Shown: positions 4,410 to 48,620, counted from the stretch's first letter. The stretch: 64,000 nucleotides of DNA from Acidimicrobiia bacterium (GCA_035544575.1 DATKEC010000117.1:11865-75864); one strand, 5' to 3'. A program made the numbers and translations. The notes: a model not told the origin generated them from the letters alone.

Positions 4410-4433
4410 GCGCGCCCGTCTCGACGGGGCAGG

Positions 4434-5300: not shown

Positions 5301-6244
5301 GAGCGCGCGATCCTTGGATCGAGCCATGAGTAGGCGAGGTCGACGACCAGGTTCACGATGACGAAGGCTGCGGCCGAGACCAGCACCGCGACCTGGACCA
5401 CGTCGAATGCCCGCGTGAGTATCGACTGGATCATCAACCAACCGAGTCCGGGCCAGGTGAAGATCTGTTCGATCACGACCATGCCCCCCACCATGAGGCC
5501 GAAACTCACGCCGACTTCGGTGATTAGGGGAATCGAGGCGTTGCGGAGTGCATGGCGGTAGTTGATCCGGCGCGACTCCAGCCCCTTGGCCCGGGCGGTC
5601 CTGACGTAGTCGGCGTGTAAGACCTCGAGCATGCCCGCCCGCATGAAGCGGGTCAGCCTGGCCGCAGTGACGGTCCCGATCGTGATCACGGGCAGGACGA
5701 GCTGGCTCAGGTGGCGAAACGGATCCTGGGAGAACGGAACGTAACCTCCCGGCGGGAGGATCGGTAGCAGCTCCGCAAAAACGAGCAGCAGCGCGATGCC
5801 CAACACATAGGTCGGCATACTGAAACCGAGGGTGGCCAGCACGCGCGCAACGTGGTCCATCCAGGTGCCTTCACGTATCGCAGAGACCATGCCCAACGGA
5901 ACGGCGATGACCACAGCGAGGACGATCGAGATCACCGCCAGCTCCAGCGTTCGTCCGAGCGCCGGAAATACGAGACCCGCCACTTCGGCTCCACCGTGCG
6001 TGATGGACGTACCCAGGTCCCCGCGCACCAGGTTGCCCATCCAGCGGAAGTATTGCTCGACGAGCGGATCATCCAGGCCAAGCTCCGCCCGCAACGCGGC
6101 GTACGCCTCAGGGGGCGCGTCGAACCCCAACGTCATCGCCGCCGGATCTCCGGGCACGATTCGGAAGATGACGAACACTGCTGTCGCGACTATCCACATC
6201 ACCAGGAGGCCCTGGAGCACCCGGCGGAGTAGGTAGCGGCGCAT
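5297..6244 (-). CDS. Dpp/Opp-type ABC transporter permease (DppB-like).
   Basis: 315 aa starting MRRYLLRRVLQGLLVMWIVATAVFVIFRIVPGDP, a typical DppB N-terminus. Confidence 0.85.
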   Translation of the reverse strand: MRRYLLRRVLQGLLVMWIVATAVFVIFRIVPGDPAAMTLGFDAPPEAYAALRAELGLDDPLVEQYFRWMGNLVRGDLGTSITHGGAEVAGLVFPALGRTLELAVISIVLAVVIAVPLGMVSAIREGTWMDHVARVLATLGFSMPTYVLGIALLLVFAELLPILPPGGYVPFSQDPFRHLSQLVLPVITIGTVTAARLTRFMRAGMLEVLHADYVRTARAKGLESRRINYRHALRNASIPLITEVGVSFGLMVGGMVVIEQIFTWPGLGWLMIQSILTRAFDVVQVAVLVSAAAFVIVNLVVDLAYSWLDPRIARS

Positions 6245-7278
6245 CAGGAGCCAGATCCTGCGTTGGGTGGGAGCGGGCCTCGACGGGTTCCGCGAGCCGC
6301 TTCAGGACCGGGGAAGTGGCAGGCGACTCGTTGGGTCATTCCCTGACCCTGTACAAGGACAGGATCCTCGTCGGCACAAAGATCGACCGCACGCCAGCAC
6401 CTCGTTCTGAAGCGGCAACCGCTGGGTGGTTGCAGCGGATTGGGGAGATCGCCCTCGAGGACTATGCGGGTGCGCTTGCCGCCATCCAACCGGTGCGAGG
6501 GCACTGCGGACAGGAGCGCGTTCGTGTACGGATGCTGCGGGGCCGTGAACACGTCATCCCTCGTGCCGATCTCCACGATCTTGCCGAGGTACATCACCGC
6601 AACCCGGTCGGACACCTGACCAACCACTGACAGGTCATGCGCGATGAACAGATACGCCAAACCGAGCTGGTCCTTGAGATCCGCCAACAGGTTGAGGATC
6701 TGGGCCTGGATCGAGACGTCGAGAGCCGAGACGGGCTCGTCCAGGACGATCAGGGCCGGCTGCAAGGCCAACGCGCGCGCGATCGCGATGCGCTGTCGCT
6801 GTCCGCCCGAGAACTCGTGTGGGTAACGATCCAACGCCGCGAGCGGCAGCTGCACCAAGTCGAGAAGTTCGGGTGCGCGCCGAGCCGCCTCAGCGCGCCC
6901 CAGGCCGTGGATGCGAAACGGCTCGGCGAGGATTGCCCGAACACGAAACCGTGGGTTGAGCGAGGCGTAGGGATCCTGGAACACGATCTGGAAGTCGCGA
7001 CGGACCGGGCGCATGTCCCCGTGATCCAGCTCGGTGATGTCTCGACCTCGAAAGAAGATGCGGCCCGCAGCCGGGTCGACGAGTCGCATGATCGTGCGGC
7101 CCAGCGTCGACTTCCCGCATCCGGACTCACCGACGAGTCCCACTGTCTCACCCTCGGCGATCGTGAGTGAGGCTGAATCGACAGCGGTCAAAACCGCTAC
7201 TCCGTCGCCCCCCTGCCTTCTGACTGTGTAGCGGGTCGTGACTGACTCCACCTCGAGCAGGGCTCGTGACCCGGTCAT
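6244..7278 (-). CDS. Dpp/Opp-type ABC transporter ATP-binding protein (DppF-like).
   Basis: Walker A GESGCGKST and the LSGGQRQR signature are present. A C-terminal oligopeptide-ABC extension is also present. Confidence 0.9.
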   Translation of the reverse strand: MTGSRALLEVESVTTRYTVRRQGGDGVAVLTAVDSASLTIAEGETVGLVGESGCGKSTLGRTIMRLVDPAAGRIFFRGRDITELDHGDMRPVRRDFQIVFQDPYASLNPRFRVRAILAEPFRIHGLGRAEAARRAPELLDLVQLPLAALDRYPHEFSGGQRQRIAIARALALQPALIVLDEPVSALDVSIQAQILNLLADLKDQLGLAYLFIAHDLSVVGQVSDRVAVMYLGKIVEIGTRDDVFTAPQHPYTNALLSAVPSHRLDGGKRTRIVLEGDLPNPLQPPSGCRFRTRCWRAVDLCADEDPVLVQGQGMTQRVACHFPGPEAARGTRRGPLPPNAGSGS

Positions 7279-8315
7279 CGCCCACCACCGGTGGCTGCAC
7301 CCGGGTCACGCAAGCGCTCCCCAGCCCATATGACAGCCTCGGCCACGTAGTGACACTCCGCACGATGTCCGTCCCCCACCGTGTGGAGGTTCGGCGCCTC
7401 TTCGGCGCACAGGGCGCGGTCCGATCCGATCGCACACCGCGGACGGAACGAACATCCCTCGAGCTCGGAGTCGAGCCGGGGCGGCTGTCCGGGAATGGAG
7501 TAGAGACGCCGCTGCCGCCCCTCGATAGATGGGAGCGAGGCGAGCAGACCAATCGTGTAGGGGTGGCTCGGTCGAAGGAAGATGTCCTCGATCGTCCCCT
7601 GTTCGACGATTCGTCCTGCGTACATGACCGCTATGCGATCCGCTACCTGCGCAACGAGGCCGAGATCGTGTGTGATGAGGACGGTGGCTGCTCCGGTCTC
7701 CGCCTTCGCCGCCATGAGCACGTCGAGTACCTGAGCCTGGATCGTCACATCGAGCGCAGTAGTCGGCTCGTCGGCGATGAGCAGCTTCGGTCGGTTGGCA
7801 ATGGCCATCGCGATCATCGCCCGCTGCCGCATTCCGCCCGAGAACTCGTGAGGGAACTGGTGGTAGCGGCGCTCGGGTTGGGGGATCCCGACGAGTGCGA
7901 GTAGCTCGATGGCGCGTGCCCGATGAAGGTCGTCGTCGATATGGCGTGCGTGGGTCCACATGGCCTCGCGCAGCTGCTCACCGACCTTGATCACGGGATT
8001 CAACGACGTCATCGGATCCTGGAACACGACCGCCACGTCGCTTCCGCGGATGGAACGGAGTTGGTCTGCATCGAGAGAGAGCAGGTCGCGGCCCTCGAAC
8101 AGAGCTCGTCCGGAGACGATCCGCGCCGGTGGAGAAGGGACGAGCCCGAGCAGGGAGAGCACGGTCACCGTCTTGCCCGAGCCCGACTCGCCCACGATCC
8201 CGACCATCTCCCCGGGAAAGACCGTGAAGGACACCCCGTTGACGGCGTTGACCGTCCGATTGTCGGACTCGAATCGGACGCGCAGGTCGTCCACTTCAAG
8301 TAGCGGTGTCGTCAT
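7275..8315 (-). CDS. Dpp/Opp-type ABC transporter ATP-binding protein (DppD-like).
   Basis: Walker A GESGSGKT and signature FSGGMRQR. It forms an ATGA overlap with the downstream ATPase. Confidence 0.9.
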
Positions 8316-8361
8316 CGGCTCACAGTCTCCGGCCGTGCTGCGGGTTGGTCATCCGTAGAGT

Positions 8362-8396
8362 CCGGGGTTTGGCACCGATTCGGCGCCAAACCCCGG
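8362..8396. promoter_or_regulatory. Strong GC-rich hairpin (about 16-bp stem, 1 mismatch, 3-nt loop) between the SBP gene and the first ATPase gene of operon 1.
   Basis: The sequence ccggggtttggcaccg att cggcgccaaaccccgg was read directly. No U-tract follows, so this is probably an intra-operon mRNA processing or stabilising element rather than an intrinsic terminator. Confidence 0.55.
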
Positions 8397-8408
8397 ACCC
8401 GGACCGGT

Positions 8409-9977
8409 TCAGCCGGACAACGATACGTTCGTCAGGAACAAATGACCCTGTGTGTGGGCGATGAGTCCCGCAACGGATGCGGCCGTCGTCACCGGCGAGA
8501 GTCGGCCGCCGAGCACGATCTCAGGCTGACCTTCCATCGCCATTGCTTGTAGCTCCAGAATGGCGTTCCGGTAATCCTCGTCGCTCGGCATGGAACGCGC
8601 CTCGGTGAGCAGGTCGTAGAACTCCGGCCGCTGATCGATCCACCCGAGCGCCTCGGTGAACAGTTTGTTGTACGGGTGCGAGAGCAGGTCGTACTCGTCG
8701 GGCTTCGGAACCATGGCGCACAGCGCGAGATCGAAGTTGCCGGCGTCGTCGCCCAACGTGCGTGCCACGTACGTCCCTACATCGAGAACGCTGATCGTGA
8801 TGTCGATCCCGACCTCGGCGAGTTGGCTCTGCACCGCTTGAGCCAGTGTCTCGAACTGGAACCCCAGGCCACACACGATCATCTCGCCGCCTTCGACTCC
8901 ATCGGAGAACCCGGCCTCTGCCACCAGCGCCTGCGCCGTCTCGAGGTCGCGCTCGTTGTAAGAAGCGGCATCGGCGTTGAAGAAGGCCGGGTTGGCCTCC
9001 ATCGGGTTCGACAACACCTGCATGAAGCCGAACAGGCTGCGCGAGAGCGCCTGCCGGTCGAGTGCGTTGCTGACTGCCTGTCGAAGCTCCTGATTGTCCC
9101 ACGGAGCACGACGCGTGTTGATGTGGAAGTGATACAGACCCGAGTTGAACCCCTCCGGAGGCGTCAGAATCTGAAGTCCGGCCTGCTGCAGGGTGGCGAT
9201 CTCTCCGAGCGGCGTGTCCGCCAGCACCTGAACCTCGTTCGTCCGGATCTGCAGGGACTGCACGGTTCCGTCGGGGACCGTGCGATAGATCACGCCGTCC
9301 AGGTATGGGAGGCCATCCTGCCAGTAGTCGGGATTCCGCTCGACTTCGACCTGTTGGTTCCGCTCCCAGGACACGAACTTGAACGGACCGGTGCCCACGG
9401 GTGTCTCGGCGAGGTCGATCGTCGTGTCTTGTGGTGAGATGTAGACGTCCACCATCGTGCTCAGCAGAACCCGATCAGGTTCTGAGAGACGGATCTCCAC
9501 GGTCCGATCGTCGACGGCGACAGTCTCCGTCACACGGGCCAGCAGCGGTGCGGTTCGACCCGCCTCCGGTTCTGTCGCCCGGCCCATCGAAGCCACAACG
9601 TCCTCGGCGTCGAACTCAGACCCATCGTGGAAGACGACGTCATCCCGCAGGTTGAACGTCCACACCAGACCGTCCGCGGATGCGGACCAGTCCGTGGCGA
9701 GGCTTCCCACGATTTCATAGCTCGTGAGATCGAACTCGACGAGGGTGTCGTAGATGTTCGTGATGATGTTCCGGTCGTTCGTCGAACCGAAACGGTTCGG
9801 GTGAAGACCCGTCGGGTCGGCCGACTGGGCGATGACCAGGACGCCACCCGCGGTCGGCTCGGACGGTCCCGATCCGGTCGTGGTGGTGGCATCGTCTTCG
9901 CCACCGACACTGCTGCAAGCAGTGACGATCATCGCCAACGCCAAGAGCAGGGCCATCGAAGCTCGTATCCGCTGCAC
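8409..9977 (-). CDS. ABC transporter substrate-binding lipoprotein, family 5 (DppA/OppA-like).
   Basis: 522 aa with an N-terminal signal peptide and lipobox (MIVTAC). It is the first gene of the operon. Confidence 0.85.
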   Translation of the reverse strand: MQRIRASMALLLALAMIVTACSSVGGEDDATTTTGSGPSEPTAGGVLVIAQSADPTGLHPNRFGSTNDRNIITNIYDTLVEFDLTSYEIVGSLATDWSASADGLVWTFNLRDDVVFHDGSEFDAEDVVASMGRATEPEAGRTAPLLARVTETVAVDDRTVEIRLSEPDRVLLSTMVDVYISPQDTTIDLAETPVGTGPFKFVSWERNQQVEVERNPDYWQDGLPYLDGVIYRTVPDGTVQSLQIRTNEVQVLADTPLGEIATLQQAGLQILTPPEGFNSGLYHFHINTRRAPWDNQELRQAVSNALDRQALSRSLFGFMQVLSNPMEANPAFFNADAASYNERDLETAQALVAEAGFSDGVEGGEMIVCGLGFQFETLAQAVQSQLAEVGIDITISVLDVGTYVARTLGDDAGNFDLALCAMVPKPDEYDLLSHPYNKLFTEALGWIDQRPEFYDLLTEARSMPSDEDYRNAILELQAMAMEGQPEIVLGGRLSPVTTAASVAGLIAHTQGHLFLTNVSLSG

Positions 9978-10066
9978 TAAGTACCTCCTCGGAGTGTCAA
10001 CCTCGGGTGTCGATGTCGGGCGACCGACGGTCAGTTGATGTCAGACCGATCACCCGCTGTGAAATC

Positions 10067-10087
10067 GGAATCGTGGGAAACGATTCC
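10067..10087. promoter_or_regulatory. Candidate operator: GGAATCG-n7-CGATTCC inverted repeat.
   Basis: The sequence ggaatcgtgggaaacgattcc lies in the 316-bp divergent region between the SBP gene and the CoA-transferase gene. Confidence 0.35.
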
Positions 10088-10186
10088 AACCGCGCCGACA
10101 ATAGCGACGCTCCGAGCTGGCCGTCAACACATCGGAGCGAGACACCGCAGACGGACGTCATCCAGCGCCCGTCTGCGCCACTCACT

Positions 10187-10202
10187 CCGGAATCGATTCT
10201 GG
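10187..10202. promoter_or_regulatory. Candidate operator: near-perfect 16-bp palindrome CCGGAATCGATTCTGG.
   Basis: Read directly from the sequence. Same motif family as the other boxes in this window. Confidence 0.4.
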
Positions 10203-10228
10203 CGTTGTCCGTTCGGCGATTGCTGGGA

Positions 10229-10270
10229 CTACGACCTCATCCTAGAAACGTTTCTAGGATGAGGTCGTAG
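10229..10270. promoter_or_regulatory. Perfect 42-bp palindrome (21 + 21) centred on AAACGTTT, ending 24 nt upstream of the CoA-transferase start codon. Probable operator.
   Basis: The sequence ctacgacctcatcctagaaac gtttctaggatgaggtcgtag was verified base by base with no mismatches. It creates two spurious mirror ORFs that both end in YDLILETFLG. Confidence 0.6.
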
Positions 10271-10293
10271 TTCGTACCAAACTGGATGGAGCG

Positions 10294-11556
10294 ATGAACC
10301 CCCCCACCGAGGACACTCGACCCCCTACGAGGCCAGCGCCCCTCTCCGACGTGCGTGTACTTGCAGTCGAACAGTACGGTGCGGGCCCTTTCGGCACTCT
10401 GCAACTCGCCGACCTCGGCGCCGAAGTCATCAAAATCGAGGATCCTCGTTCCGGCGGAGACGTCAGCCGCTACGTCCCGCCATTCCAGGACGGGGAGCAC
10501 AGTCTGTTCTTCGAGTCGTTCAACCGAAACAAGCGGAGCTTGGGCCTCGACATCTCCAACCCCGCCGGGCGCCGGGTGTTCGAAGATCTCGTCGCCGTCT
10601 CCGACGTCGTGTACTCCAACCTTCGCGGCGACGTCCCCGCCCGGCTCCGGCTTCGCTACGCCGACCTGGCGGACGTCAACCCGGCGATCGTCTGCGTCTC
10701 ATTGTCCGGATTCGGCATGACCGGACCCCGCGTGGCCGAACCAGGCTACGACCCGATTCTTCAGGCGCTGGCTGGGTGGATGAGTGTCACGGGCGACCCG
10801 GCCGGGCCGCCCACCAAATCGGGACTGTCGCTAGTTGATTATGCGGGCGGATACGTCGCCGCGATTTCACTACTCGCCGCGCTTCATGCCGCGCGGCGTG
10901 ACGGCATCGGCATGGACTGCGACGTCAGCCTCTACGACACCGCCATCAGCCTTCTCACCTACCCGGCGATCTGGTACCTCAACGGCGGACTCATACCCGA
11001 GCGCAAGGCGAACTCGGCTCATCCCTCCCTCATCCCTTTTCAGGCATTCGAGGCGGCAGACGGATGGCTCACCGTCGCTTGCGCCAAAGAGAAGTTCTGG
11101 CAGCGCCTCGTCGTCGTGCTCGGGCTACCGGAACTCACCACCGATCCCCGGTTTTCCGACTTCGACGCTCGGAGGGAACACGCAGCCAGCCTCGGACCGA
11201 TCCTCGAGGGAGCCTTTCGTACCGACACGGTCGCGGGGTGGGTTGATCGTCTGGCAGACGCCGGAGTACCCACCGCCCCTGTCCAGTCCCTCCCCGAGGC
11301 ACTGACGGACGCCCATACTCTCGCCCGCGACCTCATCGTCGAGACCGACCATCCACTGTTCGGGCCGATCCGCCAGGTCGCCAGTTCGGTCCGGGCAGGT
11401 AACTCGATCACGGATCACCGACCCGGACCCGCGCGCAACGAGGCGTCGGACTACGCCCTGTCCACGATCCTCGGCTATGACCAGCGGACCATCGCCGCGC
11501 TCACCGCGGAAGGAGCGTTCGGCGAGGTTTCCGCTGAGTCCAAAGACTGCCGATGA
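10294..11556 (+). CDS. Family III CoA-transferase (CaiB/BaiF family).
   Basis: 420 aa with N-terminus LSDVRVLAVEQYGAGPFGTLQLADLGAEVIKIE. GGATGGAG RBS upstream. Confidence 0.85.
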   Translation: MNPPTEDTRPPTRPAPLSDVRVLAVEQYGAGPFGTLQLADLGAEVIKIEDPRSGGDVSRYVPPFQDGEHSLFFESFNRNKRSLGLDISNPAGRRVFEDLVAVSDVVYSNLRGDVPARLRLRYADLADVNPAIVCVSLSGFGMTGPRVAEPGYDPILQALAGWMSVTGDPAGPPTKSGLSLVDYAGGYVAAISLLAALHAARRDGIGMDCDVSLYDTAISLLTYPAIWYLNGGLIPERKANSAHPSLIPFQAFEAADGWLTVACAKEKFWQRLVVVLGLPELTTDPRFSDFDARREHAASLGPILEGAFRTDTVAGWVDRLADAGVPTAPVQSLPEALTDAHTLARDLIVETDHPLFGPIRQVASSVRAGNSITDHRPGPARNEASDYALSTILGYDQRTIAALTAEGAFGEVSAESKDCR

Positions 11557-11590
11557 ACCGCCCACGATTACAGGCCCGGTCTGATGTCGG

Positions 11591-11636
11591 CCGTTACGAT
11601 TCCGGGCCACTCCGGAAACGTTGAAGCGTTTTCGGC
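11591..11636. promoter_or_regulatory. Two candidate operator boxes upstream of the LacI-family regulator gene (possible autoregulation).
   Basis: The boxes are ccgttacgattccggg and ccggaaacg ttgaag cgttttcgg. The second is an interrupted palindrome. Confidence 0.4.
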
Positions 11637-11684
11637 CATCCGAGCCCAGGGAGTTGCGTGCACAGCGGAGAAAACAACCCCACG

Positions 11685-12683
11685 ATGAAGGAAGTGGCGT
11701 CTCGCGCTGGCGTCGCGCTCTCCTCCGTCTCCCGAGTTCTCAACCACCATCCCGACGTGAGCGAACGCATGCGCCGGCGAGTTCTGAACGCGGTCGACGA
11801 CCTCGGCTATGAGCCGAACCTTGTCGCGTCGAGCCTGCGCCGCGGGTCGACCCATACGATCGGCTTCGTCGTCTCCGACATCTCCAACCCGCTGTTCGCA
11901 GACTTCACGAAGGGAGCGGGTGACCGGCTCCATGCCGCCGGCTATTCGATGGTGCTCACCAACGCCGGAAGCGACCCGGAACAAGATGAAGCGATGATCC
12001 GCCTCCTCCGCTGGAGGAGGGTGGACGGCCTGATCACGTCGCTCGCAGACGAGTCCCGCCCAGATACGATCGCCGAACTCCAGCGGATAGAAGTCCCCAT
12101 CGTTCTACTCGACCGGTTCGTCGACGAACTTCCGAATGCCTCTGTCATCAGTGCCGAACACGCCTCGGGGATGACAGAGGCGACGGCGCAGTTGCTCGCC
12201 CTCGGCCACCGCCGCATCGCCTTGATCTCCGGATCCCCCCGCATCCGGCCTCCGAACGAGCGGGTGGAGGGCTTCCGACGGGCATTCGACCGCTTCCGTA
12301 TCCCGTACCCATCCGACCTCGTGCGTCTGGGGAGCTTCTCGCCGGAGTTCGGGACACGTTCCACCACTGAATTGCTCGCCTTGCCCGAGCCGCCAACGGC
12401 GATCATCTCTGGTGGCAACTTGTTGCTGACGGGCGTGTTGCGAGCGTTGCGGAGCGCCGCGCTGCATCCGGGTCGGGACATCGCGATAATCTCCTGCGAC
12501 GACGTCGCGCTCGCGGAACTGCACACCCCGCCTATCACTGTGATCGCCCGCGACACGGTCCGAATGGGCGAGTTGGCAGCGGAGTTGATGCTGGAGCGCC
12601 TCGCATCCGAGGATGCTCCGCCCCGCGTCGAACGCGTGCCCACCACCGTCGTGATGCGCGAGTCGACTTTCCCGCTGAGGTAG
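11685..12683 (+). CDS. LacI-family transcriptional regulator. The ORF-track start at GTG 11658 is also possible.
   Basis: N-terminal HTH MKEVASRAGVALSSVSRVLNHHPDVSERMRRRVLNAVDDLGYEPNLVASSLR followed by a periplasmic-binding-fold sugar-binding domain. Confidence 0.85.
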   Translation: MKEVASRAGVALSSVSRVLNHHPDVSERMRRRVLNAVDDLGYEPNLVASSLRRGSTHTIGFVVSDISNPLFADFTKGAGDRLHAAGYSMVLTNAGSDPEQDEAMIRLLRWRRVDGLITSLADESRPDTIAELQRIEVPIVLLDRFVDELPNASVISAEHASGMTEATAQLLALGHRRIALISGSPRIRPPNERVEGFRRAFDRFRIPYPSDLVRLGSFSPEFGTRSTTELLALPEPPTAIISGGNLLLTGVLRALRSAALHPGRDIAIISCDDVALAELHTPPITVIARDTVRMGELAAELMLERLASEDAPPRVERVPTTVVMRESTFPLR

Positions 12684-12693
12684 TCGGCGTCGC

Positions 12694-12933
12694 CTAGGTC
12701 TCTATGACGCAGAGACCGGCCCCGGTGGCTACCTCGTCGCCCTCTGACACCAGCGTCTCGACCAACGTCCCCCCGATCGGCGTGGGCACCTCCATCTCGA
12801 CCTTGTCGGTCTCGACCCGCACGATGGGATCACCGGCCGCCACCGTTCCACCGATTGGAACCAACCAATCCAGCAGCAGGACCTCGTCGACGGTGTCGGC
12901 GACCTTGGGCAGCTTCACGATACTCCGTGGCAC
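12694..12933 (-). CDS. Free-standing lipoyl (biotin/lipoyl attachment) domain protein, 79 aa.
   Basis: Contains the VETDKVEMEV lipoyl-lysine motif. The protein is a single roughly 80-aa hybrid-barrel domain with no E2 catalytic domain. Confidence 0.7.
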   Translation of the reverse strand: MPRSIVKLPKVADTVDEVLLLDWLVPIGGTVAAGDPIVRVETDKVEMEVPTPIGGTLVETLVSEGDEVATGAGLCVIET

Positions 12934-12945
12934 AGCGGCGACCTC

Positions 12946-13929
12946 CTAGGCGTACACATTGCGGAACATCGCGGCGGGCTCGGGGAAGGGTGACTCCTTC
13001 ACCTGAGCTACCAACTCCTCGAGTGCTCCGCCGACCGCTTTCTCGAGTTGCTCTGCGGATTCCGCAGTGAGCACTCCCTCGTCGATCAGTCTGGCGCGGA
13101 ACGTGTTGATCGGATCCCGCTCGTACCACCTCTCGAACTCACCTGGGACCCGATAGGGAGCGGTGTCGGCCCGGGAATGGCCGGCATAGCGGTAGGTCTT
13201 TGCTTCGAGCAGGCTCGGCCCGTCGCCGGCACGCGCCCGGGCGAGGGCTGTGTTCATCGCCTGTTCGACCGCGTCGGGGTCCTGGCCATTCACGATCACA
13301 CCCGGGATGCCGTACGACACCGCTCGGTCGGCGAGATCCTCGATGGGTGTCGTGACATCGATCCGGCTGTATTCGCCGTACTGGTTGTTCTCGCAGACGA
13401 ACACCACAGGGAGCTTCCAGATGGCGGCCAGGTTGATTCCCTCGTGGAATGCACCGATGTTCGAGGCGCCGTCACCGAAGACCGCAATCGCGGCATCGTC
13501 GGTTCCGTTCACCTGAGCAGTCAGCGCGGCGCCCGCGGCCACGGGAATGCCTGCGCCGATGATCGCGAACGTCGGAAGAAGACCCACCTCGGGCTCGCAC
13601 AGATGCATGGAGCCGCCCACACCTCCCACCGATCCACCCACACGACCCATGATCTCGGCGAGGACGCTCTCTCCGGTCACACCCAATGCAAGCGCCACAC
13701 CGTGACCTCGATAGGTACAGGTCACCTGATCGGTGGGCCGAGCGGCCGCGGCGATGCCCACGGCAACCGCCTCCTGACCCTGGCAGGTATGAGTGGTACC
13801 GTGGACGATCCCCTCGGCGAACAGATCCTTGACACGATCCTCGAACGAGCGGATCTCCACCATCCGGCGGAACCGCTCTACGCGATCGGTCTGCAATGCC
13901 CTCCGGCGCTCGAGCGGAACTGAACTCAT
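12946..13929 (-). CDS. TPP-dependent 2-oxoacid/acetoin dehydrogenase E1 component, alpha subunit.
   Basis: TPP-binding motif GDGASNIGAFHEGINLAAIWKLPVVFVCENNQY. The start at 13929 forms an ATGA overlap with the E1-beta stop. Confidence 0.85.
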   Translation of the reverse strand: MSSVPLERRRALQTDRVERFRRMVEIRSFEDRVKDLFAEGIVHGTTHTCQGQEAVAVGIAAAARPTDQVTCTYRGHGVALALGVTGESVLAEIMGRVGGSVGGVGGSMHLCEPEVGLLPTFAIIGAGIPVAAGAALTAQVNGTDDAAIAVFGDGASNIGAFHEGINLAAIWKLPVVFVCENNQYGEYSRIDVTTPIEDLADRAVSYGIPGVIVNGQDPDAVEQAMNTALARARAGDGPSLLEAKTYRYAGHSRADTAPYRVPGEFERWYERDPINTFRARLIDEGVLTAESAEQLEKAVGGALEELVAQVKESPFPEPAAMFRNVYA

Positions 13930-14939
13930 CTCGACTCCTTCTTCTTCCACCACGGAGACGGGAGAGAACCCGTCGCCAGTAGCTCGTCGACCTGGCTCAC
14001 CACGTACTCGGCGGAGGGAAGAAAACGGGCCTCGAGTTCCTTGCCGAACGGGACAGGGACATCTGGACAGGTGATGCGGGTGATCGGCGCCGTGAGATGC
14101 CGGAAGCCCTCACCGGCCAACCGGGCAGCGACCTCGACCCCCCATCCGCCGGTGAAAGGAGACTCTTCCACGAGTACGAGACGGCCTGTGCGCTCCACCG
14201 AGAACAGGACCGCCTCGACGTCCCAGGGCAGGAGAGATCGCAGGTCGATGACGTCTGCCGACCACGACGCCATCGCCGTAGCTTCGAGGACGGTGCGAAC
14301 CATCGCCCCGAGCGTGACGATCGTGACATCGTCTCCTGACTCCGCGAGCTGGGCAGAACCGAGCTGCACGAGTTGGTCATCGCCGGTCTCGACGTCGCCC
14401 CTGGTGGCGTAGAGCACCCGGGGCTCGAGGACGACGACGGGATTGGGATCGCGGATCGCCGACCGGATCAGCCCATAGGCGTTCTGGGGGCTGGAGGCCA
14501 CGGCCAGCTTGAGGCCGGGCGTGGCGAACATCCACGTTTCGAGCGTCTGTGAGTGTTGTGCCCCAAAGCCGAGTCCTGCACCGACCGACGCTCGCACAAC
14601 CATCGGCACGGTCACCTTCCCGCCCGAGAGGTAATGGAACTTGGCCGCCTCGGTCGACACCTGATCGAGGGCGACTCCGAGAAACTCCACGAACATGATC
14701 TCGACCACGGGGCGCAGGCCGGTGCAGGCGGCGCCGACCGCCGCCCCGACGAATCCCATCTCGGAGATCGGAGTGTCGCGTACGCGCAGCGGCCCGAACT
14801 CGTCGAGCAGACCATCCGAGGTCTTGAATGGTCCTCCCGCTGCTGCGACGTCCTCGCCGAGCACGACGACGGACGCGTCGGCCCGCATCTCGTCGGCGAT
14901 ACCCGCCGCAATCGCCTGGTTCATTCGCATCTTGGGCAT
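13926..14939 (-). CDS. 2-oxoacid/acetoin dehydrogenase E1 component, beta subunit.
   Basis: Real start MPKMRMNQAIAAGIADEMRADASVVVLGEDV at 14939. The ORF-track N-terminal extension is Arg/Ser-rich junk. The protein has a transketolase-like fold. Confidence 0.85.
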   Translation of the reverse strand: MPKMRMNQAIAAGIADEMRADASVVVLGEDVAAAGGPFKTSDGLLDEFGPLRVRDTPISEMGFVGAAVGAACTGLRPVVEIMFVEFLGVALDQVSTEAAKFHYLSGGKVTVPMVVRASVGAGLGFGAQHSQTLETWMFATPGLKLAVASSPQNAYGLIRSAIRDPNPVVVLEPRVLYATRGDVETGDDQLVQLGSAQLAESGDDVTIVTLGAMVRTVLEATAMASWSADVIDLRSLLPWDVEAVLFSVERTGRLVLVEESPFTGGWGVEVAARLAGEGFRHLTAPITRITCPDVPVPFGKELEARFLPSAEYVVSQVDELLATGSLPSPWWKKKESR

Positions 14940-16458: not shown

Positions 16459-17817
16459 TCACACCGCGGCAGCCACCTCGGACAGCGTCTCCCGCAGCGC
16501 CCCGACCGCGGCTGCGAGGGTGTCTGCGTCGACGGTGAACGCGGGAACGAAGTTCGTGCAGTCGCCAACGAGGACCCCGGAATGCCGCAGCGTGCGTAGG
16601 AGGAAGCCCCGCCTCCACATCCCATCCCACAGCCGCCGCGGTATGTCGGCTTCGGCCGGAAAGGGCTCCCTGGAGTCCCTGGATCGAACGTATTCGATAC
16701 CGATCAGCAGTCCTTTCCCTCGTACCTCTCCCACTATCGGGGCATCGGCGAGTTCCTGGTCGAGCATCTCCCGAGCGACCTCTCCCATCTTCTTCGCTCG
16801 ATCGAACAGGTTCTCTTCCTCGATGATGTCGAGGACCACGGATCCGACCGCGCACGAGATCGGGTTCCCGGAATACGTGTGGACGGCCGACACGCCGCGC
16901 CCCGCCGCCTCGATCGTGTCCGCCACCGTGCCGCGTACGAGGGTGGCGGCCAGGGGTGCGTAACCCCCGGTGAGCCCCTTGCCGAGGTTGGAGAGGTCGG
17001 CGGTGACTCCGATCTGGTCGAAAGCGAGAAATGTGCCGCACCGCCCGGCACCGGATACGATCTCGTCCGCGATCAGCAGGATGCCGTAGTGATCACAGAT
17101 CCGCCGTACCTCGCGCCAATAGGATGGATCCGGCACGACCATCCCCGCCGACGGCGAGATCGGCTCTGCGATGAACGCTGCCACCGTCTCTGGACCTTCC
17201 GCCTCGATCGCGTCGATCAAGAGAGCCGCCGCACTCTCAGCGGCCTCCTTTGGCTCGAGGTCGCGGAACGGCCCGCGATATGTGACCGGGGGCGGGATGC
17301 TGCCAATCTCGAACAGATAAGGCGCGTAATCATCCGTGATGTCCTTCCGTCCGGTCACAGACAGCGCGCCCGCGGTGGCACCGTGGTAGCTCGGAGCAAG
17401 GGACAGCACTTTCGAGCGGTTTGGTTCGTCCCGAGCGAGGTGATACTGCCGGACGATGCGGAGGGAGAGTTCGTTCGCCTCCGATCCGCCCGAGCTGAAC
17501 ATCACCTTCTCGATGCCAGGGGGCGAGAGCGCCACGTATCGAGCAGCCAGTTCCTCCTGCCTGTCGTTTGTCACCCAGGAGTTGTGGATGAACGCGAGAC
17601 GCTCCGCCTGTTCGGCCATCGCCCGGGCGACACGCGTGCGTCCCTGTCCGATCGAGGCAGTCGTCGAGATACCGCTCGCCAGGTCGATGAGGCGGTGGCC
17701 GGTCTCATCCCAGAGTTCATAGCCTTCACCGCGCACGATGACAGGCAGGGAGTCCCCCGGACTCCGGTAGAAGATGGCAGATGATCGGGTGCTCGTACCG
17801 GACATCACCGGGACCAT
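16459..17817 (-). CDS. Class III PLP-dependent aminotransferase (omega-aminotransferase family).
   Basis: 452 aa with the typical class III fold pattern. Divergent from SBP gene 2. Confidence 0.8.
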   Translation of the reverse strand: MVPVMSGTSTRSSAIFYRSPGDSLPVIVRGEGYELWDETGHRLIDLASGISTTASIGQGRTRVARAMAEQAERLAFIHNSWVTNDRQEELAARYVALSPPGIEKVMFSSGGSEANELSLRIVRQYHLARDEPNRSKVLSLAPSYHGATAGALSVTGRKDITDDYAPYLFEIGSIPPPVTYRGPFRDLEPKEAAESAAALLIDAIEAEGPETVAAFIAEPISPSAGMVVPDPSYWREVRRICDHYGILLIADEIVSGAGRCGTFLAFDQIGVTADLSNLGKGLTGGYAPLAATLVRGTVADTIEAAGRGVSAVHTYSGNPISCAVGSVVLDIIEEENLFDRAKKMGEVAREMLDQELADAPIVGEVRGKGLLIGIEYVRSRDSREPFPAEADIPRRLWDGMWRRGFLLRTLRHSGVLVGDCTNFVPAFTVDADTLAAAVGALRETLSEVAAAV

Positions 17818-17912: not shown

Positions 17913-17928
17913 CGGGAATCGTTACCGG
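17913..17928. promoter_or_regulatory. Candidate operator box cgggaatcgttaccgg in the divergent region between the aminotransferase gene and SBP2.
   Basis: Fits the same motif family. Confidence 0.3.
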
Positions 17929-18011
17929 TGCCGATGGCCGGTCGGAGGTGGCGTTCCCGCGATCCGGCGCACCGCGCCGGGAGACAGGCAAACGATCCAG
18001 AGGAGATAACC

Positions 18012-19607
18012 GTGAGGAACAAGACCCTCGGCCTGCTCCTGGTGCTGGCATTGGTCGCAACTGCGTGCACTCCGGGTGCCGATACAACGACCACAGCGAG
18101 TACCGGGACGACTGCGCCCAGCGAAACCACTACGACAGCCGCGGGGGACACGACCACAACCGCGGCACCCAGTGACCCGACCGGTGGCGCCCTGATCGTC
18201 GCGGAGACCACCCCGCCCGTCACCCTCGATCCAACCCAGTCGGCGCTGATCAAGACATGGCTGCCATGGCAGCTCGTTTTCGACTCCTTGATCCTTCAGC
18301 AGCCCGACGGCTCGTTCGAGCCGCGGCTGGCGACCGATTGGACGATCAGCGACGACGGCCTCACCTACACGTTCAACCTGCGGGAGGGCGTCGTCTTCCA
18401 CAACGGTGAGCCCTTCGAGGCCGACGATGTGGTGTTCACCTTCGAGCGGGCCAAAGAAGTGGGAATCCCGTATGCACTGGCCCGCGTCGGCGTCATCGAG
18501 TCGATCACCGCATTGGACGAACTCACCGTCGAAATCGTGCTCTCTCAGTTCGACTCCGGATTCCTGAACAACCTCGCAAACACGTTCCCGGTGTCGACCG
18601 CCATCCTCAACCGGGAGGCGAGCGCGACGTCCGATCCGGCCCTCTTCATGGTCGGGACCGGGCCATTCAAGATGGTGGCGTATGCCCCGGAACGGGAACT
18701 CGTCCTCGAGAAGAACGCCGAGTATTGGGAGCCCGACCGGCCCAAGGTGGACTCCCTCATCATCCAGTACATCCCCGAACAGCAGGCCCAACTCGCCGCC
18801 CTCCAGGCCGGGGAGATCGACCTGATGTTCCCGACGCCCGAGTCGGCGCTCGTCCTCGCTTCCGACCCGAACATCACTCTGGCGGAGGTGACGTCAGCGA
18901 ACATCGTGCGACTCAACGTCAACAGCAGCCGACCACCGCTCGATGACGTCAACGTTCGCCGGGCGATTGCGCTGGCCATCGACCGCCAAGCGATCGTCGA
19001 CGGAGCACTGCTCGGACAGGGAAAACCCTCCTCCTACATTCCGGAGGCATACGCCTGGGCACCCAGCCTCGAGGAGCAACCGTATTCGTCCCAGGACGTC
19101 GAAGAGGCGCAGCGTCTCCTCGCTGAAGCGGGATATCCGGACGGCGTCGACATCGAACTGATGCACCTGGCAGGTTATGGGACGTATCTGGACCTGTTCG
19201 TCGAGATCCTGGCCGACCAGTTGGCCGACGTCGGTATCCGGGCGAACATCGTCCCCCAGGAGCAGGCGACATGGCTCGACCGGCTACTGAACGCGAACTA
19301 CGACGTCACCGACAACGAGTTCTCGTTCCAGGCCGATCCGTTCCAATACTTGCGCATCCGCCGCGAACGGCAGGGGCCCGCCGATCCCGTCATCGACGAG
19401 CTCGAGGCGGCCGCCCTGGCGGCAGGTCCCGACGACCTGGTGGGCATCCTGGAAGAGCTCGCCCGGACCCATGCCGACCTGGTCTACCCCGATATCCCGA
19501 TCATGGCGCGCACGGCCTTCACGGCCTACCGGAACAACGTGGTGGGGGTGAACCAGGACTTCACGAACAGCTATCGCTTCCTGGTGGACGTCGGCAAGGA
19601 GGGTTGA
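18012..19607 (+). CDS. ABC transporter substrate-binding lipoprotein, family 5 (DppA-like), paralog 2. GTG start.
   Basis: AGGAGA RBS 5 nt before GTG 18012. Signal peptide with lipobox (LVATAC). The mature region is Thr-rich. Confidence 0.85.
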   Translation: MRNKTLGLLLVLALVATACTPGADTTTTASTGTTAPSETTTTAAGDTTTTAAPSDPTGGALIVAETTPPVTLDPTQSALIKTWLPWQLVFDSLILQQPDGSFEPRLATDWTISDDGLTYTFNLREGVVFHNGEPFEADDVVFTFERAKEVGIPYALARVGVIESITALDELTVEIVLSQFDSGFLNNLANTFPVSTAILNREASATSDPALFMVGTGPFKMVAYAPERELVLEKNAEYWEPDRPKVDSLIIQYIPEQQAQLAALQAGEIDLMFPTPESALVLASDPNITLAEVTSANIVRLNVNSSRPPLDDVNVRRAIALAIDRQAIVDGALLGQGKPSSYIPEAYAWAPSLEEQPYSSQDVEEAQRLLAEAGYPDGVDIELMHLAGYGTYLDLFVEILADQLADVGIRANIVPQEQATWLDRLLNANYDVTDNEFSFQADPFQYLRIRRERQGPADPVIDELEAAALAAGPDDLVGILEELARTHADLVYPDIPIMARTAFTAYRNNVVGVNQDFTNSYRFLVDVGKEG

Positions 19608-19615
19608 TCTGGATC

Positions 19616-19648
19616 AGCCGGGCGGGGACTCCTCCTTCCCGCCCGGCT
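19616..19648. promoter_or_regulatory. GC-rich hairpin (11-bp stem) immediately downstream of SBP gene 2.
   Basis: The sequence agccgggcggg gactcctcctt cccgcccggct. No U-tract follows. This mirrors the hairpin after SBP gene 1. Confidence 0.5.
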
Positions 19649-19688
19649 GGCCACTGCCACTCGCAACGAATCGTCGATCGGTGAACAC

Positions 19689-20714
19689 GTGACCTCTCAG
19701 CCGCTACTCCGGGTCAGAGATCTCGAGACGCGCTTCTATGCCGACTTCGGCGTTGTGCGTGCGGTGGACGGCGTCTCCTTCGATGTCCATCCGGGAGAAA
19801 CGCTCGGCCTGGTGGGCGAATCCGGCTCAGGCAAGAGCGTCACCGCCATGTCCATCCTGCGCCTGGTTGGCTCTCCCGGAAGGATCGTGGCGGGCTCCAT
19901 CGAACTCGAAGGCGTCGATCTCCTCGGTCTCGATGCCGAGGAAATGAGGCGCGTGCGAGGCGGACAGATCAGCACGGTGTTCCAGAATCCGATGACTGCC
20001 CTCAATCCTGCGCTCCGCATCGGCTGGCAGCTCGACGAAGCACACCTCGCACACCATCGCGACGGGACGAAGTCCGCGGCCCGGGAAAAGGCGATCGAGA
20101 TGCTGCGATCTGTTGGTATCGCAGAGGCGGAGACGCGAGCCGAGTCCTATCCACACGAGTACTCGGGCGGGATGCGACAGCGGATCGTGATCGCAATGGG
20201 GATGATGAACAACCCGAAGCTGATCATCGCCGACGAACCGACCACTGCGTTAGACGTCACCATTCAGGCACAGGTCATCGACCTGTTGAAGCGGCTGATC
20301 GCCGACCACGACATGGCCCTGATCCTCATCACACACAACATGGGCGTCGTCGCGAACATGTGTGATCGGGTAGCGGTGATGTACGCGGGTCAGATCGTCG
20401 AGGAGGCGCCCGTCGACAAACTCTTCGACGATCCGCGCCACCCGTACACCTGGGCGCTGCTGCGGTCCCTACCAAGCATCGAGACCCGCGGGGAACGACT
20501 GCCGGCCATCCCCGGCTTTCCACCAGACATGACCAACCCGCCGGAAGGCTGTCGGTTCCGGCCCCGCTGTCCGTTTGCCGAGGACGTTTGCGAGGAGCCG
20601 CCTCCGCTCGTGATGCTCGATGACGGGACGAAGTCGCGCTGCTGGATCGCCCAGCGTGGGGAGACCTTCGCCGACCGCGACGACCGACTTCTCCATCGGG
20701 ACAAGCCGGCGTGA
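19689..20714 (+). CDS. Dpp/Opp-type ABC ATP-binding protein (DppD-like), paralog 2.
   Basis: Walker A GESGSGKS and signature YSGGMRQR. Confidence 0.9.
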   Translation: MTSQPLLRVRDLETRFYADFGVVRAVDGVSFDVHPGETLGLVGESGSGKSVTAMSILRLVGSPGRIVAGSIELEGVDLLGLDAEEMRRVRGGQISTVFQNPMTALNPALRIGWQLDEAHLAHHRDGTKSAAREKAIEMLRSVGIAEAETRAESYPHEYSGGMRQRIVIAMGMMNNPKLIIADEPTTALDVTIQAQVIDLLKRLIADHDMALILITHNMGVVANMCDRVAVMYAGQIVEEAPVDKLFDDPRHPYTWALLRSLPSIETRGERLPAIPGFPPDMTNPPEGCRFRPRCPFAEDVCEEPPPLVMLDDGTKSRCWIAQRGETFADRDDRLLHRDKPA

Positions 20715-21772
20715 GCATTTCGGACGCCGGGGCTCCCGTCGATACCGGCGATGGCACGTCCCGCGCGCTGCTGCAGCTGACCGATGTCGTGAAGTACTTC
20801 ACGGTGCGGCAGGGTCTCCTGGCCGCCACTCACACGGTCCACGCGGTCGACGGAATCACGCTCAACATCTTCGAGGGAGAGACACTCGGCGTGGTCGGCG
20901 AGTCGGGCTGCGGTAAGTCGACCCTCGCCCGAGTGGTCGTCGGACTGCTCCGCCCGGATTCGGGATCCGTCGAGTTGGGTGGGACAGACATCCACGCCGG
21001 CGACAGCGACGCAGCGAGTGCACGACGCAAGCTTCAGATGGTGTTCCAGGATCCGGCGGGCTCGCTCAACCCCAGACTCAGCGTTCTCGACAGCGTTGCC
21101 GAACCGCTGCATGCCCGCGGGATGCGCAGGACCGACGACCGCGTGTTCGAGGCACTCGACCTCGTCGGTCTGAAGGCCGAGTACGCGCACCGTCTCCCCC
21201 ATCAACTCTCGGGCGGACAGCAACAGCGTGCCTGTATCGCACGAGCGCTGATCAGTGAGGCGCGTGTGGTGGTGCACGACGAGGCGGTCAGCGCTCTCGA
21301 CATCTCCCTTCAGGCACAGGTGCTGAACCTGTTGCGCGACCTCCAAGACCGACTGGGCCTCACCTACGTCTTCATCTCCCACGACCTCGCCACCGTCCAG
21401 ACGATCAGCACGCGGATCGCGGTGATGTACCTGGGGAAGGTGGTGGAACTGTCCCCCGCCCGCAGATTCCACGAGCGGCCCCTTCATCCCTATTCCGTGG
21501 CCCTGCGTTCGGCGGTACCCGTGCCGCATCCGGCGGTCGAGCGGGCCAGGGCGCGCATCCTCCTGCGAGGCGACGTGCCGAGTCCGCTCGCACCGCCATC
21601 CGGTTGCCGGTTCAATACACGATGCCCGCTCGCCCAGGACATATGCCGCGAAGCGGAACCACCCTTGACTGAACATGCCCCGGGACAATGGGCGGCCTGT
21701 CACTTCGCTGGCAGATTCGACCGCACGCTCAGCGCAATTCGAGAACAGCCCCACGATGGGACTGCATCATGA
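20711..21772 (+). CDS. Dpp/Opp-type ABC ATP-binding protein (DppF-like), paralog 2.
   Basis: Walker A GESGCGKST and signature LSGGQQQR. GTGA overlap with the upstream gene. Confidence 0.9.
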   Translation: MSISDAGAPVDTGDGTSRALLQLTDVVKYFTVRQGLLAATHTVHAVDGITLNIFEGETLGVVGESGCGKSTLARVVVGLLRPDSGSVELGGTDIHAGDSDAASARRKLQMVFQDPAGSLNPRLSVLDSVAEPLHARGMRRTDDRVFEALDLVGLKAEYAHRLPHQLSGGQQQRACIARALISEARVVVHDEAVSALDISLQAQVLNLLRDLQDRLGLTYVFISHDLATVQTISTRIAVMYLGKVVELSPARRFHERPLHPYSVALRSAVPVPHPAVERARARILLRGDVPSPLAPPSGCRFNTRCPLAQDICREAEPPLTEHAPGQWAACHFAGRFDRTLSAIREQPHDGTAS

Positions 21773-26439: not shown

Positions 26440-26460
26440 CCGGATCGGATACGATTCCGG
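26440..26460. promoter_or_regulatory. Candidate operator ccggatcggatacgattccgg in the divergent region.
   Basis: It shares the GGATACGATTCC core with the direct repeats at 36489-36518. Confidence 0.35.
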
Positions 26461-34884: not shown

Positions 34885-34900
34885 CCTAGAATCGATTCCA
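34885..34900. promoter_or_regulatory. Candidate operator cctagaatcgattcca (palindromic GAATCGATTC core) in the divergent region.
   Basis: Read directly from the sequence. It sits between the start of the 2-HADH operon and the cupin gene. Confidence 0.4.
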
Positions 34901-36488: not shown

Positions 36489-36518
36489 GGATACGATTCT
36501 TGGATACGATTCCAATCG
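36489..36518. promoter_or_regulatory. Direct repeat of GGATACGATTC (2 copies) followed by CAATCG. Candidate operator in the divergent region.
   Basis: The sequence ggatacgattc tt ggatacgattc caatcg was read directly. Confidence 0.4.
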
Positions 36519-42810: not shown

Positions 42811-42905
42811 GTAAGTCGTTTGTGTCCTCCGCGATCAGTGCCACCACACCTCCTTCGTTTACAAACTGGGCATCGCCGGCCCGGACGCCTACCCGACCCT
42901 CGGGC

Positions 42906-42917
42906 TGGAAACGTTAC
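42906..42917. promoter_or_regulatory. Candidate operator box ggaaacgttact in the divergent region between the DAO gene and enolase-2.
   Basis: Same GGAAACGTT core as the other boxes. Confidence 0.3.
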
Positions 42918-42959
42918 TATCCTCGGTTCAGAACGAGCTTTCCGGTCAGGAGTCCGAGC

Positions 42960-46780: not shown

Positions 46781-46835
46781 CGTTCGTCGTCCTCCTCGTC
46801 CGTGGAGGGCAGGGTAGCGACCGAAGAACGACCTC

Positions 46836-46849: not shown

Positions 46850-46852
46850 GGG

Positions 46853-48616: not shown

Positions 48617-48620
48617 TCGA

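Follow-up and report, generated by a model that had tools for sequence, protein, structure and literature searches.

How can a 2-oxoacid dehydrogenase-type E1 component work when its genes are accompanied by a lipoyl domain and by no E2 acyltransferase? The question is raised by a 64,000-nucleotide stretch of an Acidimicrobiia bacterium genome (GCA_035544575.1, DATKEC010000117.1:11865-75864; the whole of this stretch is hereafter called the window), where genes for the beta and alpha subunits of a thiamine pyrophosphate (TPP)-dependent E1 are followed by the gene of a lone lipoyl-domain protein. In textbook 2-oxoacid dehydrogenases the lipoyl domains are tethered to an E2 core. Here, we find the same E1 clade in ~70 loci from several phyla, paired with an untethered lipoyl protein and with no linked E2. 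This extends a preliminary description of the window, in that the module is widespread, its E1 genes run in the order beta then alpha, a coenzyme A (CoA)-transferase is a recurrent partner and some relatives possess a split E2.

An E1 pair and its free-standing lipoyl protein

The module occupies positions 12694–14939 of the window, on the minus strand. E1-beta (13926–14939, 337 amino acids (aa)) matches PF02779 (E = 1.2e-38) and PF02780 (E = 4.7e-31), the TPP-binding subunit E1-alpha (12946–13929, 327 aa) matches PF00676 (E = 5.6e-82), and the free-standing 79-aa protein (12694–12933) matches PF00364 (Biotin_lipoyl, E = 1.4e-16). Open reading frames (ORFs) and Pfam domains confirm the preliminary description of an E1 alpha/beta pair followed by a lone lipoyl protein, as they do its placement of an amidohydrolase and a class III aminotransferase upstream in the same operon (Amidohydro_1 and Aminotran_3). 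The minus-strand operon begins with the class III (omega-type) aminotransferase (16459–17817, PF00202, E = 1.1e-85) and continues with the amidohydrolase (15043 to ~16344; the start is uncertain and the longest ORF extends to 16452), E1-beta, E1-alpha and the lipoyl gene. Exact protein matches for window genes are HVR33658.1 (the lipoyl protein) and HVR33659.1. The stop codon of E1-beta overlaps the probable ATG start of E1-alpha at 13929 as ATGA; this start gives the 327 aa common to all relatives, while the longest ORF spans 12946–13953. The lipoyl gene has a GTG start with a strong Shine-Dalgarno sequence (AGGAGG) 8 nt upstream, and its stop codon is 10 bp from that of a convergent LacI-family regulator gene (11658–12683, plus strand, Pfam), leaving no space for an E2 remnant. 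In the closest relative, locus L008 (92–95% identity), a DDE_3 transposase gene (10492–11271) lies between the intact lipoyl gene and LacI; as it was inserted right after the lipoyl gene, the operon ends there. The E1-beta, E1-alpha and lipoyl genes are a conserved, translationally coupled unit.

By their alpha and beta domains, the two larger proteins are a predicted heterotetrameric TPP-dependent E1. The TPP motif GDG...NN (G152-D153-G154...N181-N182) and H251 of the YRYxGHS motif (YRYAGHSRAD in the window) are invariant in nine E1-alpha relatives. Human pyruvate dehydrogenase (PDH) E1-alpha is the closest solved structure to E1-alpha, and E1-beta matches 1ik6 (Pyrobaculum E1-beta) and 1um9_B (Thermus 2-oxoacid dehydrogenase E1) in the PDB. 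Against NCBIfam models, E1-alpha reached 324.6 bits for the PDH equivalog TIGR03182 (cut-off 393.85) and E1-beta 310.6 bits for the subfamily model PRK09212 (cut-off 321). Close E1-alpha homologues bear automatic names of two kinds, PDH E1-alpha and acetoin:DCPIP oxidoreductase alpha. Because both subunits are below the NCBI PDH cut-offs and the homologue names are mixed, models and names assign no definite substrate to this E1. One metagenome contig of 1992 bp encodes a 406-aa protein (P0146) in which an E1-alpha, 70% identical to that of the window, is fused directly to a lipoyl domain. The fusion could be natural or an assembly or frameshift artefact and, coming from one short contig, is given little weight.

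The 79-aa protein consists of a lipoyl domain only, with no peripheral subunit-binding domain in the Pfam result or the AlphaFold model. PF00364 was the sole family that Pfam reported for it, GCV_H (PF01597) being absent. The model (predicted local distance difference test score 88) has the flattened beta-barrel of lipoyl domains and matches those of E2 proteins (1qjo, 3crk_C) with template modelling scores of 0.85–0.92. The predicted lipoyl-lysine, K44 (codon 12802–12804), stands in a VETDKV motif and is placed by the model in the hairpin turn joining strands 36–42 and 45–50. A single lipoyl ETDK motif (12799–12813) was found in six frames of the window. VETDK is invariant in an alignment of 24 homologues, and 32 of 32 homologues from a database search are 65–88 aa long. 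On these grounds of sequence and fold we take it to be a genuine, conserved free-standing lipoyl-domain protein, probably lipoylated at K44. A profile search of 1.84 billion database representatives with the lipoyl alignment gave longer proteins for all of the best 150 matches (136–920 aa), which we read as multi-lipoyl-domain E2s and not free-standing proteins. A plasmid collection queried with the Mesorhizobium lipoyl protein yielded only lipoyl domains of full E2/E3 proteins, all below 60% identity.

Public names for the protein are generic (‘biotin/lipoyl-containing protein’ in GenBank, HVR33658.1, and ‘lipoyl domain-containing protein’) and biotin and lipoyl domains fold alike, hence it might serve a carboxylase as biotin carboxyl carrier protein, or act as a lipoyl relay or donor with no relation to the E1. 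This is very improbable. The motif is ETDKV and not (A/V)MKM, with no MKM motif in six frames of the window; NCBIfam models of E2 lipoyl domains score 46–62 bits against 18–28 bits for biotin carriers; Pfam detected no carboxylase gene among ~50 window ORFs; and the lipoyl gene is always coupled to E1 across loci. Motif and NCBIfam scores together rule out a biotin carrier identity. The AcoC model NF011457 matches the protein over its lipoyl part alone (53 bits, cut-off 307).

The preliminary description also allowed that the lipoyl ORF is what remains of a disrupted E2 gene. Beyond the missing E2 nothing favours such decay, or a non-functional module, and the possibility is minute: homologues keep their length and their VETDK motif, the ORF is retained in 69 loci from several phyla, its Shine-Dalgarno sequence is strong, only 10 bp separate it from the convergent stop codon, downstream and elsewhere in the window no frame contains E2 sequence, and in L008 the gene is intact although a transposase follows directly.

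Motif, Pfam and hidden Markov model (HMM) scans of the 64-kb window agree with the earlier observation that no E2 or E3 accompanies the E1 pair. The E2 catalytic motif DHRxxDG is absent from all six frames. A PF00198-type HMM, built from E2 catalytic domains including those of the split-E2 relatives described below and run on all stop-to-stop frames (--max, E ≤ 10), found no match in any frame of the window, the region beyond the convergent gene included; the same HMM recovered every known E2 positive in related loci. It also detected no catalytic-domain-only E2 (~230–260 aa) in the window or the lipoyl-only loci. Pfam analysis of the ~50 window ORFs returned no PF00198, E3, lipoate ligase or lipoate synthase, and LipB and LipA were not seen in the window. 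The E3 redox-disulfide motif CxxxxC is absent from the window and from the 1.68 Mb of loci scanned (window plus L001–L095). As a motif scan found no linked E3 even in relatives with a full E2, the E3 is presumably unlinked.

Distribution and sister architectures

A scan with an E1-alpha alignment, using one genome per species, returned 80 loci; after removal of near-duplicates, 69 loci carry a free-standing lipoyl ORF. The order beta-alpha-lipoyl, with the lipoyl gene directly after E1-alpha, is found in 59 of the 69. In the other ten (alphaproteobacterial loci and L026) the lipoyl gene lies elsewhere in the locus; six alphaproteobacterial loci have it beside a CoA-transferase gene, with a MaoC-family dehydratase gene between the two in at least L067. 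In the genomic contexts of eight lipoyl homologues the genes run E1-beta, E1-alpha, 78–80-aa lipoyl protein in every case, and neither E2 nor E3 is encoded within 10 kb. Recurring in 69 related loci, the arrangement is far beyond chance. The 80 scan loci come mainly from metagenome-assembled genomes (MAGs) of Acidimicrobiia, many from sponge symbionts, with others from Mesorhizobium spp., Microlunatus ginsengisoli, Nakamurella, Devosia, Roseiarcus, Acidobacteria and a Spirochaetaceae MAG. In the E1-alpha neighbour-joining tree, which is midpoint-rooted without an outgroup and hence approximate, the lipoyl-only loci group together in a single large clade. A conserved neighbour that might be a non-homologous acyltransferase was also sought, and no unlabelled family occurred in more than 10 of the 69 loci. 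The commonest unlabelled neighbours, judged by eye, resemble permeases or are small proteins reminiscent of RidA, glyoxalase, cupin or MaoC families, the MaoC-like one alone being name-checked in a database.

Relatives outside the lipoyl-only clade possess E2 catalytic domains in two forms. Chloroflexota are the least similar group among the scan loci, and 13 Chloroflexota loci (E1-alpha identity 50–54%) have a normal E2 of 408–476 aa, with lipoyl domain and DHRxxDG motif, directly before E1-alpha and E1-beta; several lie in sugar-acid contexts like the type A described below. Lipoyl ORFs before E1-alpha in Chloroflexota were considered as lipoyl–E1-beta fusions and rejected, being full E2s with DHRxxDG.

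The second form is a split E2, found in three loci. L070 (Solirubrobacterales, 12023–14284) has, in sequence, E1-beta, E1-alpha, a short-chain dehydrogenase/reductase (SDR), a 79-aa lipoyl protein, a CoA-transferase and a 262-aa catalytic-only E2, whose gene overlaps the CoA-transferase stop codon. L096 (metagenome, 4353–9690) has a sugar ATP-binding cassette (ABC) system, lactonase, enolase-type dehydratase and CoA-transferase, then E1-alpha, E1-beta, a 79-aa lipoyl protein, a MaoC-type hydratase, an SDR and a catalytic-only E2. L097 (metagenome, 9001–14207) has a catalytic-only E2, CoA-transferase, fragmented E1, LacI, 80-aa lipoyl protein, SDR and Opp-type importer. The catalytic proteins of these loci (228–262 aa) contain neither lipoyl nor subunit-binding domain, and a search with that of L070 led to a family of PF00198-only proteins of 218–262 aa (P0153–P0169). 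Split-E2 loci resemble the window in E1 family (~53–57% E1-alpha identity), free 79–80-aa lipoyl protein, family III CoA-transferase, SDR and sugar-acid context, and differ from it and from the 69 lipoyl-only loci in the extra 228–262-aa PF00198-only protein. To our knowledge these split-E2 systems are undescribed. The E1 family therefore occurs with a full E2, a split E2 or a lipoyl protein alone, and, judged by sequence, the three look like a graded series from an assembled complex to a dissociated system.

A proposed diffusible carrier and its partners

We propose, with a probability of about 0.5, that the module is a dissociated 2-oxoacid-dehydrogenase-type front end, whose E1 loads the free lipoyl protein for an acyltransferase and an E3 acting in trans. 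The upstream amidohydrolase and aminotransferase would make a carbonyl substrate from an imported amide or amine, which the alpha2beta2 E1 would decarboxylate, or cleave, using TPP, reductively acylating K44 of the 79-aa protein. This protein would then be a diffusible carrier, much like the H-protein of the glycine cleavage system, and its acyl group would reach CoA via an E2 catalytic domain encoded elsewhere, belonging either to the housekeeping E2 or to an unlinked E2 that has the catalytic domain only. The general E3 of the cell would re-oxidise the dihydrolipoyl protein, and a family III CoA-transferase that seemingly shares a LacI-type operator with the operon would handle the resulting CoA ester. 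In this scheme lipoylation, the nature of the substrate, each of the transfers and the choice of E2 and E3 acting in trans are inferred.

By its motifs the E1 appears to retain what lipoyl loading needs, namely the TPP motif and the GHS histidine, and its partner the ETDK hairpin and fold of an E2-type lipoyl domain. Trans action of an E2 would be in keeping with the split-E2 relatives, with precedents for shared subunits, and with the CoA-ester-type enzymes that adjoin the lipoyl gene in L096 and, as MaoC dehydratase and CoA-transferase, in loci of the Mesorhizobium type. It would also suit the cassette-bearing Acidimicrobiia genomes L032, L033 and L035, in which a housekeeping E2 gene is followed by LipB and LipA; this gene accounts for E2-like motif matches ~9 kb from the cassette, which were rejected as a linked partner. 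As sister clades with split and full E2 exist, an untethered lipoyl protein combined with E2 catalysis would be a natural design here, with acyl-CoA as the expected product. The preliminary description had left the choice between a trans E2/E3 and a stand-alone carrier; the relatives with full and split E2 lean towards a trans E2.

Several points weigh against the proposal. Within 10 kb of the 69 lipoyl-only loci there is no E2 catalytic gene except the unrelated housekeeping E2 in three, so that a dedicated E2 partner is never linked. As a rule, an E2 catalytic domain accepts particular acyl groups, and a housekeeping E2 may refuse the product. The presence of E2 and E3 elsewhere in the source genome is assumed, the search having spanned 64 kb. 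The aminotransferase resembles omega-amine:pyruvate transaminases (best PDB matches 6io1 and 5lh9), which normally yield aldehydes or ketones and not 2-oxo acids, hence it does not obviously supply a 2-oxo acid.

The absence of a linked E2 catalytic domain from the lipoyl-only loci, those three housekeeping genes aside, also suits the main rival, a scheme that needs no E2, in which acyl group and electrons from E1 end on the free lipoyl protein and only E3 is borrowed. The acyl-dihydrolipoyl thioester would yield the free acid, by hydrolysis or through discharge by a non-E2 enzyme, and a CoA-transferase or ligase would re-activate the acid. A family III CoA-transferase or AMP-binding ligase lies within ~10 kb in 23 of the 69 loci, including the window, L008 and L009, and the CoA-transferase of the window is seemingly co-regulated with the operon through a shared motif. 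Family III CoA-transferase genes alone are near the cassette in 17 of the 69 loci, and also in L070, L096 and L097, which keep the lipoyl gene. However, in these three the CoA-transferase accompanies a real E2 catalytic protein and so is no substitute for E2; discarding and then remaking a thioester would be wasteful; and 46 of the 69 loci have no nearby CoA-activating enzyme. We hold the scheme, its hydrolysis and re-activation steps included, to be possible but doubtful. It is improbable that the lipoyl protein is a platform resembling acyl carrier protein, on which SDRs, MaoC-type hydratases and the family III CoA-transferase process or discharge a lipoyl-bound thioester without an E2. If true, this would be a lipoyl-carrier-dependent catabolic route for deoxy-sugar acids and amine-derived carbonyls that is widespread in Acidimicrobiia, including sponge symbionts, and in rhizobia.

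The component families are known from PDH, branched-chain 2-oxoacid dehydrogenase and AcoABCL, with which the window shares E1 alpha/beta families, TPP motif, GHS histidine and an E2-type lipoyl domain as presumed acyl acceptor. It differs from all three in that E2 is cut to the lipoyl domain, with no linker, subunit-binding domain or catalytic core, in its gene order (beta-alpha instead of alpha-beta) and in having no linked E3; by gene content it thus lacks the fused E2 (AcoC) and the adjacent E3 (AcoL) of AcoA/B/C/L. A ‘putative acetoin dehydrogenase complex’ of Sulfolobus solfataricus, described in 2010 by Payne, Hough and Danson, reportedly has E1 genes and an E2 without a catalytic domain. 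Our literature searches found no description of a free-standing lipoyl protein with an E1, or of a link to sugar acids, and we could not find the beta-alpha-lipoyl architecture without linked E2 described; it is apparently new, its closest published counterparts being the Sulfolobus cluster and the archaeal single-domain lipoyl proteins mentioned below.

Precedents for parts of the proposed system exist. Actinobacterial OdhA depends on lipoyl groups from E2p, that is, in trans (PMC10415282). This hybrid of PDH and 2-oxoglutarate dehydrogenase (OdhA/KGD-AceF), also from Actinomycetota, resembles the window in that the lipoyl domain sits on one polypeptide and the E2 catalytic domain using it on another (PMC10415282), but its lipoyl domains remain attached to the E2p core and what is orphaned is a catalytic domain joined to E1o, whereas in the window it is the lipoyl domain. 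Human 2-oxoadipate dehydrogenase (DHTKD1, E1a) shares subunits with the 2-oxoglutarate complex (PMC10415282; PMC9367764). Like the proposed window system, it has an E1 of its own and relies on another complex for E2 and E3; unlike the window E1, it brings no lipoyl domain. Small lipoyl proteins that move freely from one enzyme to another are exemplified by glycine cleavage H-protein and sHdr-associated LbpA (PMC6067878), but they belong to another family (GCV_H, PF01597) and have no E1-type TPP partner, and the likeness is functional only. Lipoyl domains outside E2, at the N-terminus of alphaproteobacterial PdhB (NF008854) and in Neisseria E3 (1gjx, 5u25), show that the domain is portable; unlike the window protein they are extra fused copies in complexes that retain a full E2. 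A survey notes archaeal single-domain lipoyl proteins (PMC3904984), with no comparable function or distribution described and kinship to the window clade not indicated.

Gene contexts, substrate and regulation

Judged by neighbouring gene families, the module occurs in two contexts, amide/amine catabolism, as in the window, and rhamnose/fucose-like sugar-acid catabolism. The former (type B; window, L008, L009 and L016) comprises an Opp/Dpp-type importer, the aminotransferase, an Amidohydro_1 protein, the module, and the convergent LacI and CoA-transferase genes. A related set of six loci (L010, L043, L053, L056, L061 and L075) has a dimethylformamidase-like amidase, a DAP_DH_C-type amine dehydrogenase, TauD, an AMP-binding ligase and an SDR. 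The sugar-acid context (type A) comprises SDRs, a Gfo/Idh/MocA oxidoreductase, a xylose-isomerase-like triosephosphate isomerase (TIM) barrel protein, one or two enolase-superfamily dehydratases, a rhamnose mutarotase (rhaM), an Amidohydro_2 lactonase-type protein and a sugar ABC system, with a GH106 rhamnosidase in one case. Read against the established L-rhamnose and L-fucose pathways, type A looks like a non-phosphorylative 6-deoxyhexose route without its usual last enzymes. Overall, enolase-superfamily genes are found in 40 and SDRs in 58 of the 69 loci. The convergent placement of the LacI gene recurs in L008 and L009 and in many loci of the sugar type.

In the window, the operon is flanked on its divergent side by an Opp/Dpp-type ABC importer (17928–23606, plus strand; SBP_bac_5, two ATPases and two permeases by Pfam). 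Beyond LacI lies the family III CoA-transferase gene (CoA_transf_3, 10294–11556, plus strand; PF02515, E = 3e-116), whose product resembles formyl-CoA transferase, SUGCT and YfdE, and beside this pair a second Opp/Dpp-type ABC importer (4434–9977, minus strand, Pfam). The amidohydrolase, with orthologues of 425–427 aa in L008 and L009, is distantly like cog1228 prolidase/Arg-carboxypeptidase. NCBIfam and PDB matches of the amidohydrolase, aminotransferase and CoA-transferase failed to assign a substrate, scoring far below family cut-offs.

These contexts bear on the reaction catalysed by E1. It may be an acetoin-dehydrogenase-like C–C cleaving enzyme that splits an alpha-hydroxyketone or diketone, rather than a 2-oxoacid decarboxylase, a reading that is compatible with either fate of the acyl-lipoyl protein since it concerns the substrate. 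Possible substrates would be a 4-keto-6-deoxy sugar derivative or an aminoketone-derived product, from which an aldehyde is released while the remaining acyl group passes to the lipoyl protein. Some close homologues (79–85% identity) are named acetoin:DCPIP oxidoreductase alpha by the Joint Genome Institute, both E1 subunits are under the NCBI PDH cut-offs, an omega-type transaminase gives ketones or aldehydes, and contexts with rhaM, GH106, SDR and Gfo/Idh/MocA genes could yield CH3-CHOH-CO-R motifs. However, the names are automatic, enolase-superfamily sugar-acid dehydratases occur in the 40 loci mentioned, and the window holds several families that typically produce 2-oxo acids (2-hydroxyacid dehydrogenases, an FMN-dependent dehydrogenase, DAO, a class IV aminotransferase and DAP_DH_C). 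We consider C–C cleavage of this kind, with the example substrates, unlikely. As to substrate class, the omega-type transaminase would fit a hydroxyketone and the dehydratase-rich contexts a 2-oxo acid. The earlier suggestion that a 2-oxo acid arises by deamination of an imported amine or amino acid is plausible, given the aminotransferase and amidohydrolase in the operon, but weak, as the enzyme is of the omega type and the module also occurs in deoxy-sugar-acid clusters.

Gene sets that adjoin the module elsewhere are also present in the window at a distance from it. A rhamnose/fucose-like set without an E1 of its own lies at 42822–51222 and consists of an enolase-superfamily dehydratase, an SDR, two xylose-isomerase-like TIM barrels, an Amidohydro_2 protein and a Gfo/Idh/MocA oxidoreductase, interleaved with a phosphotriesterase-family gene and a cytochrome P450; a possible rhaM-like ORF at ~49.8 kb (BLAST label only) overlaps the P450 ORF. 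This set matches the surroundings of the E1/lipoyl module in other Acidimicrobiia. A dimethylformamidase-like large subunit (607–2901, with a small-subunit-like ORF just upstream at ~2841) and a DAP_DH_C-type dehydrogenase (57819–59150) are encoded 10–45 kb from the module, whereas both kinds of gene stand beside it in the six loci of the related amide/amine set. In lineages where DAP_DH_C adjoins the module, it is directly upstream of E1-beta. A sub-clade of sponge-associated Acidimicrobiia (L017–L024 and L068) has an ORF of ~470 aa directly before E1-beta (~1.4 kb upstream) and after an SDR; the sole Pfam result for it is a weak neutral-ceramidase-like match of its reference homologue in L012.

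A LacI-operator-like motif, GGAATCGWWWC, occurs seven times in the window against 0.34 expected. One site (GGAATCGTTAC, 17915–17925, plus strand) separates the aminotransferase operon from the importer, in their divergent promoter region. The others, found by the same motif scan, are at 10077–10087, 10189–10199, 11593–11603, 26448–26458, 34889–34899 and 36503–36513, so that the promoter regions of CoA-transferase, LacI and the divergent operon/importer pair are covered, with further sites at three more catabolic genes. L008 and L009 have the motif at the same intergenic positions, and in L014, L015, L044 and L058 it stands upstream of E1-beta. This pattern suggests that one LacI-type regulon joins the module, the CoA-transferase and the importers, and that it reaches beyond the E1 operon to a D-Ser-dehydratase-like gene, a 2-hydroxyacid dehydrogenase and an FMN-dependent dehydrogenase. 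Beside the motif-bearing intergenic region at the D-Ser-dehydratase-like gene lies a putative 412-aa ORF (25190–26428, minus strand) with no Pfam match. A perfect 44-bp palindrome (ACTACGACCTCATCCTAGAAACG / CGTTTCTAGGATGAGGTCGTAGT, core TAGAAACGTTTCTA; 10228–10271) is located 22 nt upstream of the CoA-transferase start, and L008 has the core in the same position; the palindrome may act as an operator or form an RNA hairpin.

If the proposed system is confirmed, 2-oxoacid dehydrogenase systems can run like glycine cleavage, with a diffusible carrier, and one would then ask how E1, lipoyl domain and E2 recognise each other when untethered. Cultured carriers (Mesorhizobium spp. and Microlunatus ginsengisoli JCM 16929) make it directly testable. 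Confirmation would also reveal an unrecognised step in the breakdown of deoxy-sugar acids and of amides and amines by the abundant, little-studied Acidimicrobiia, sponge symbionts among them.

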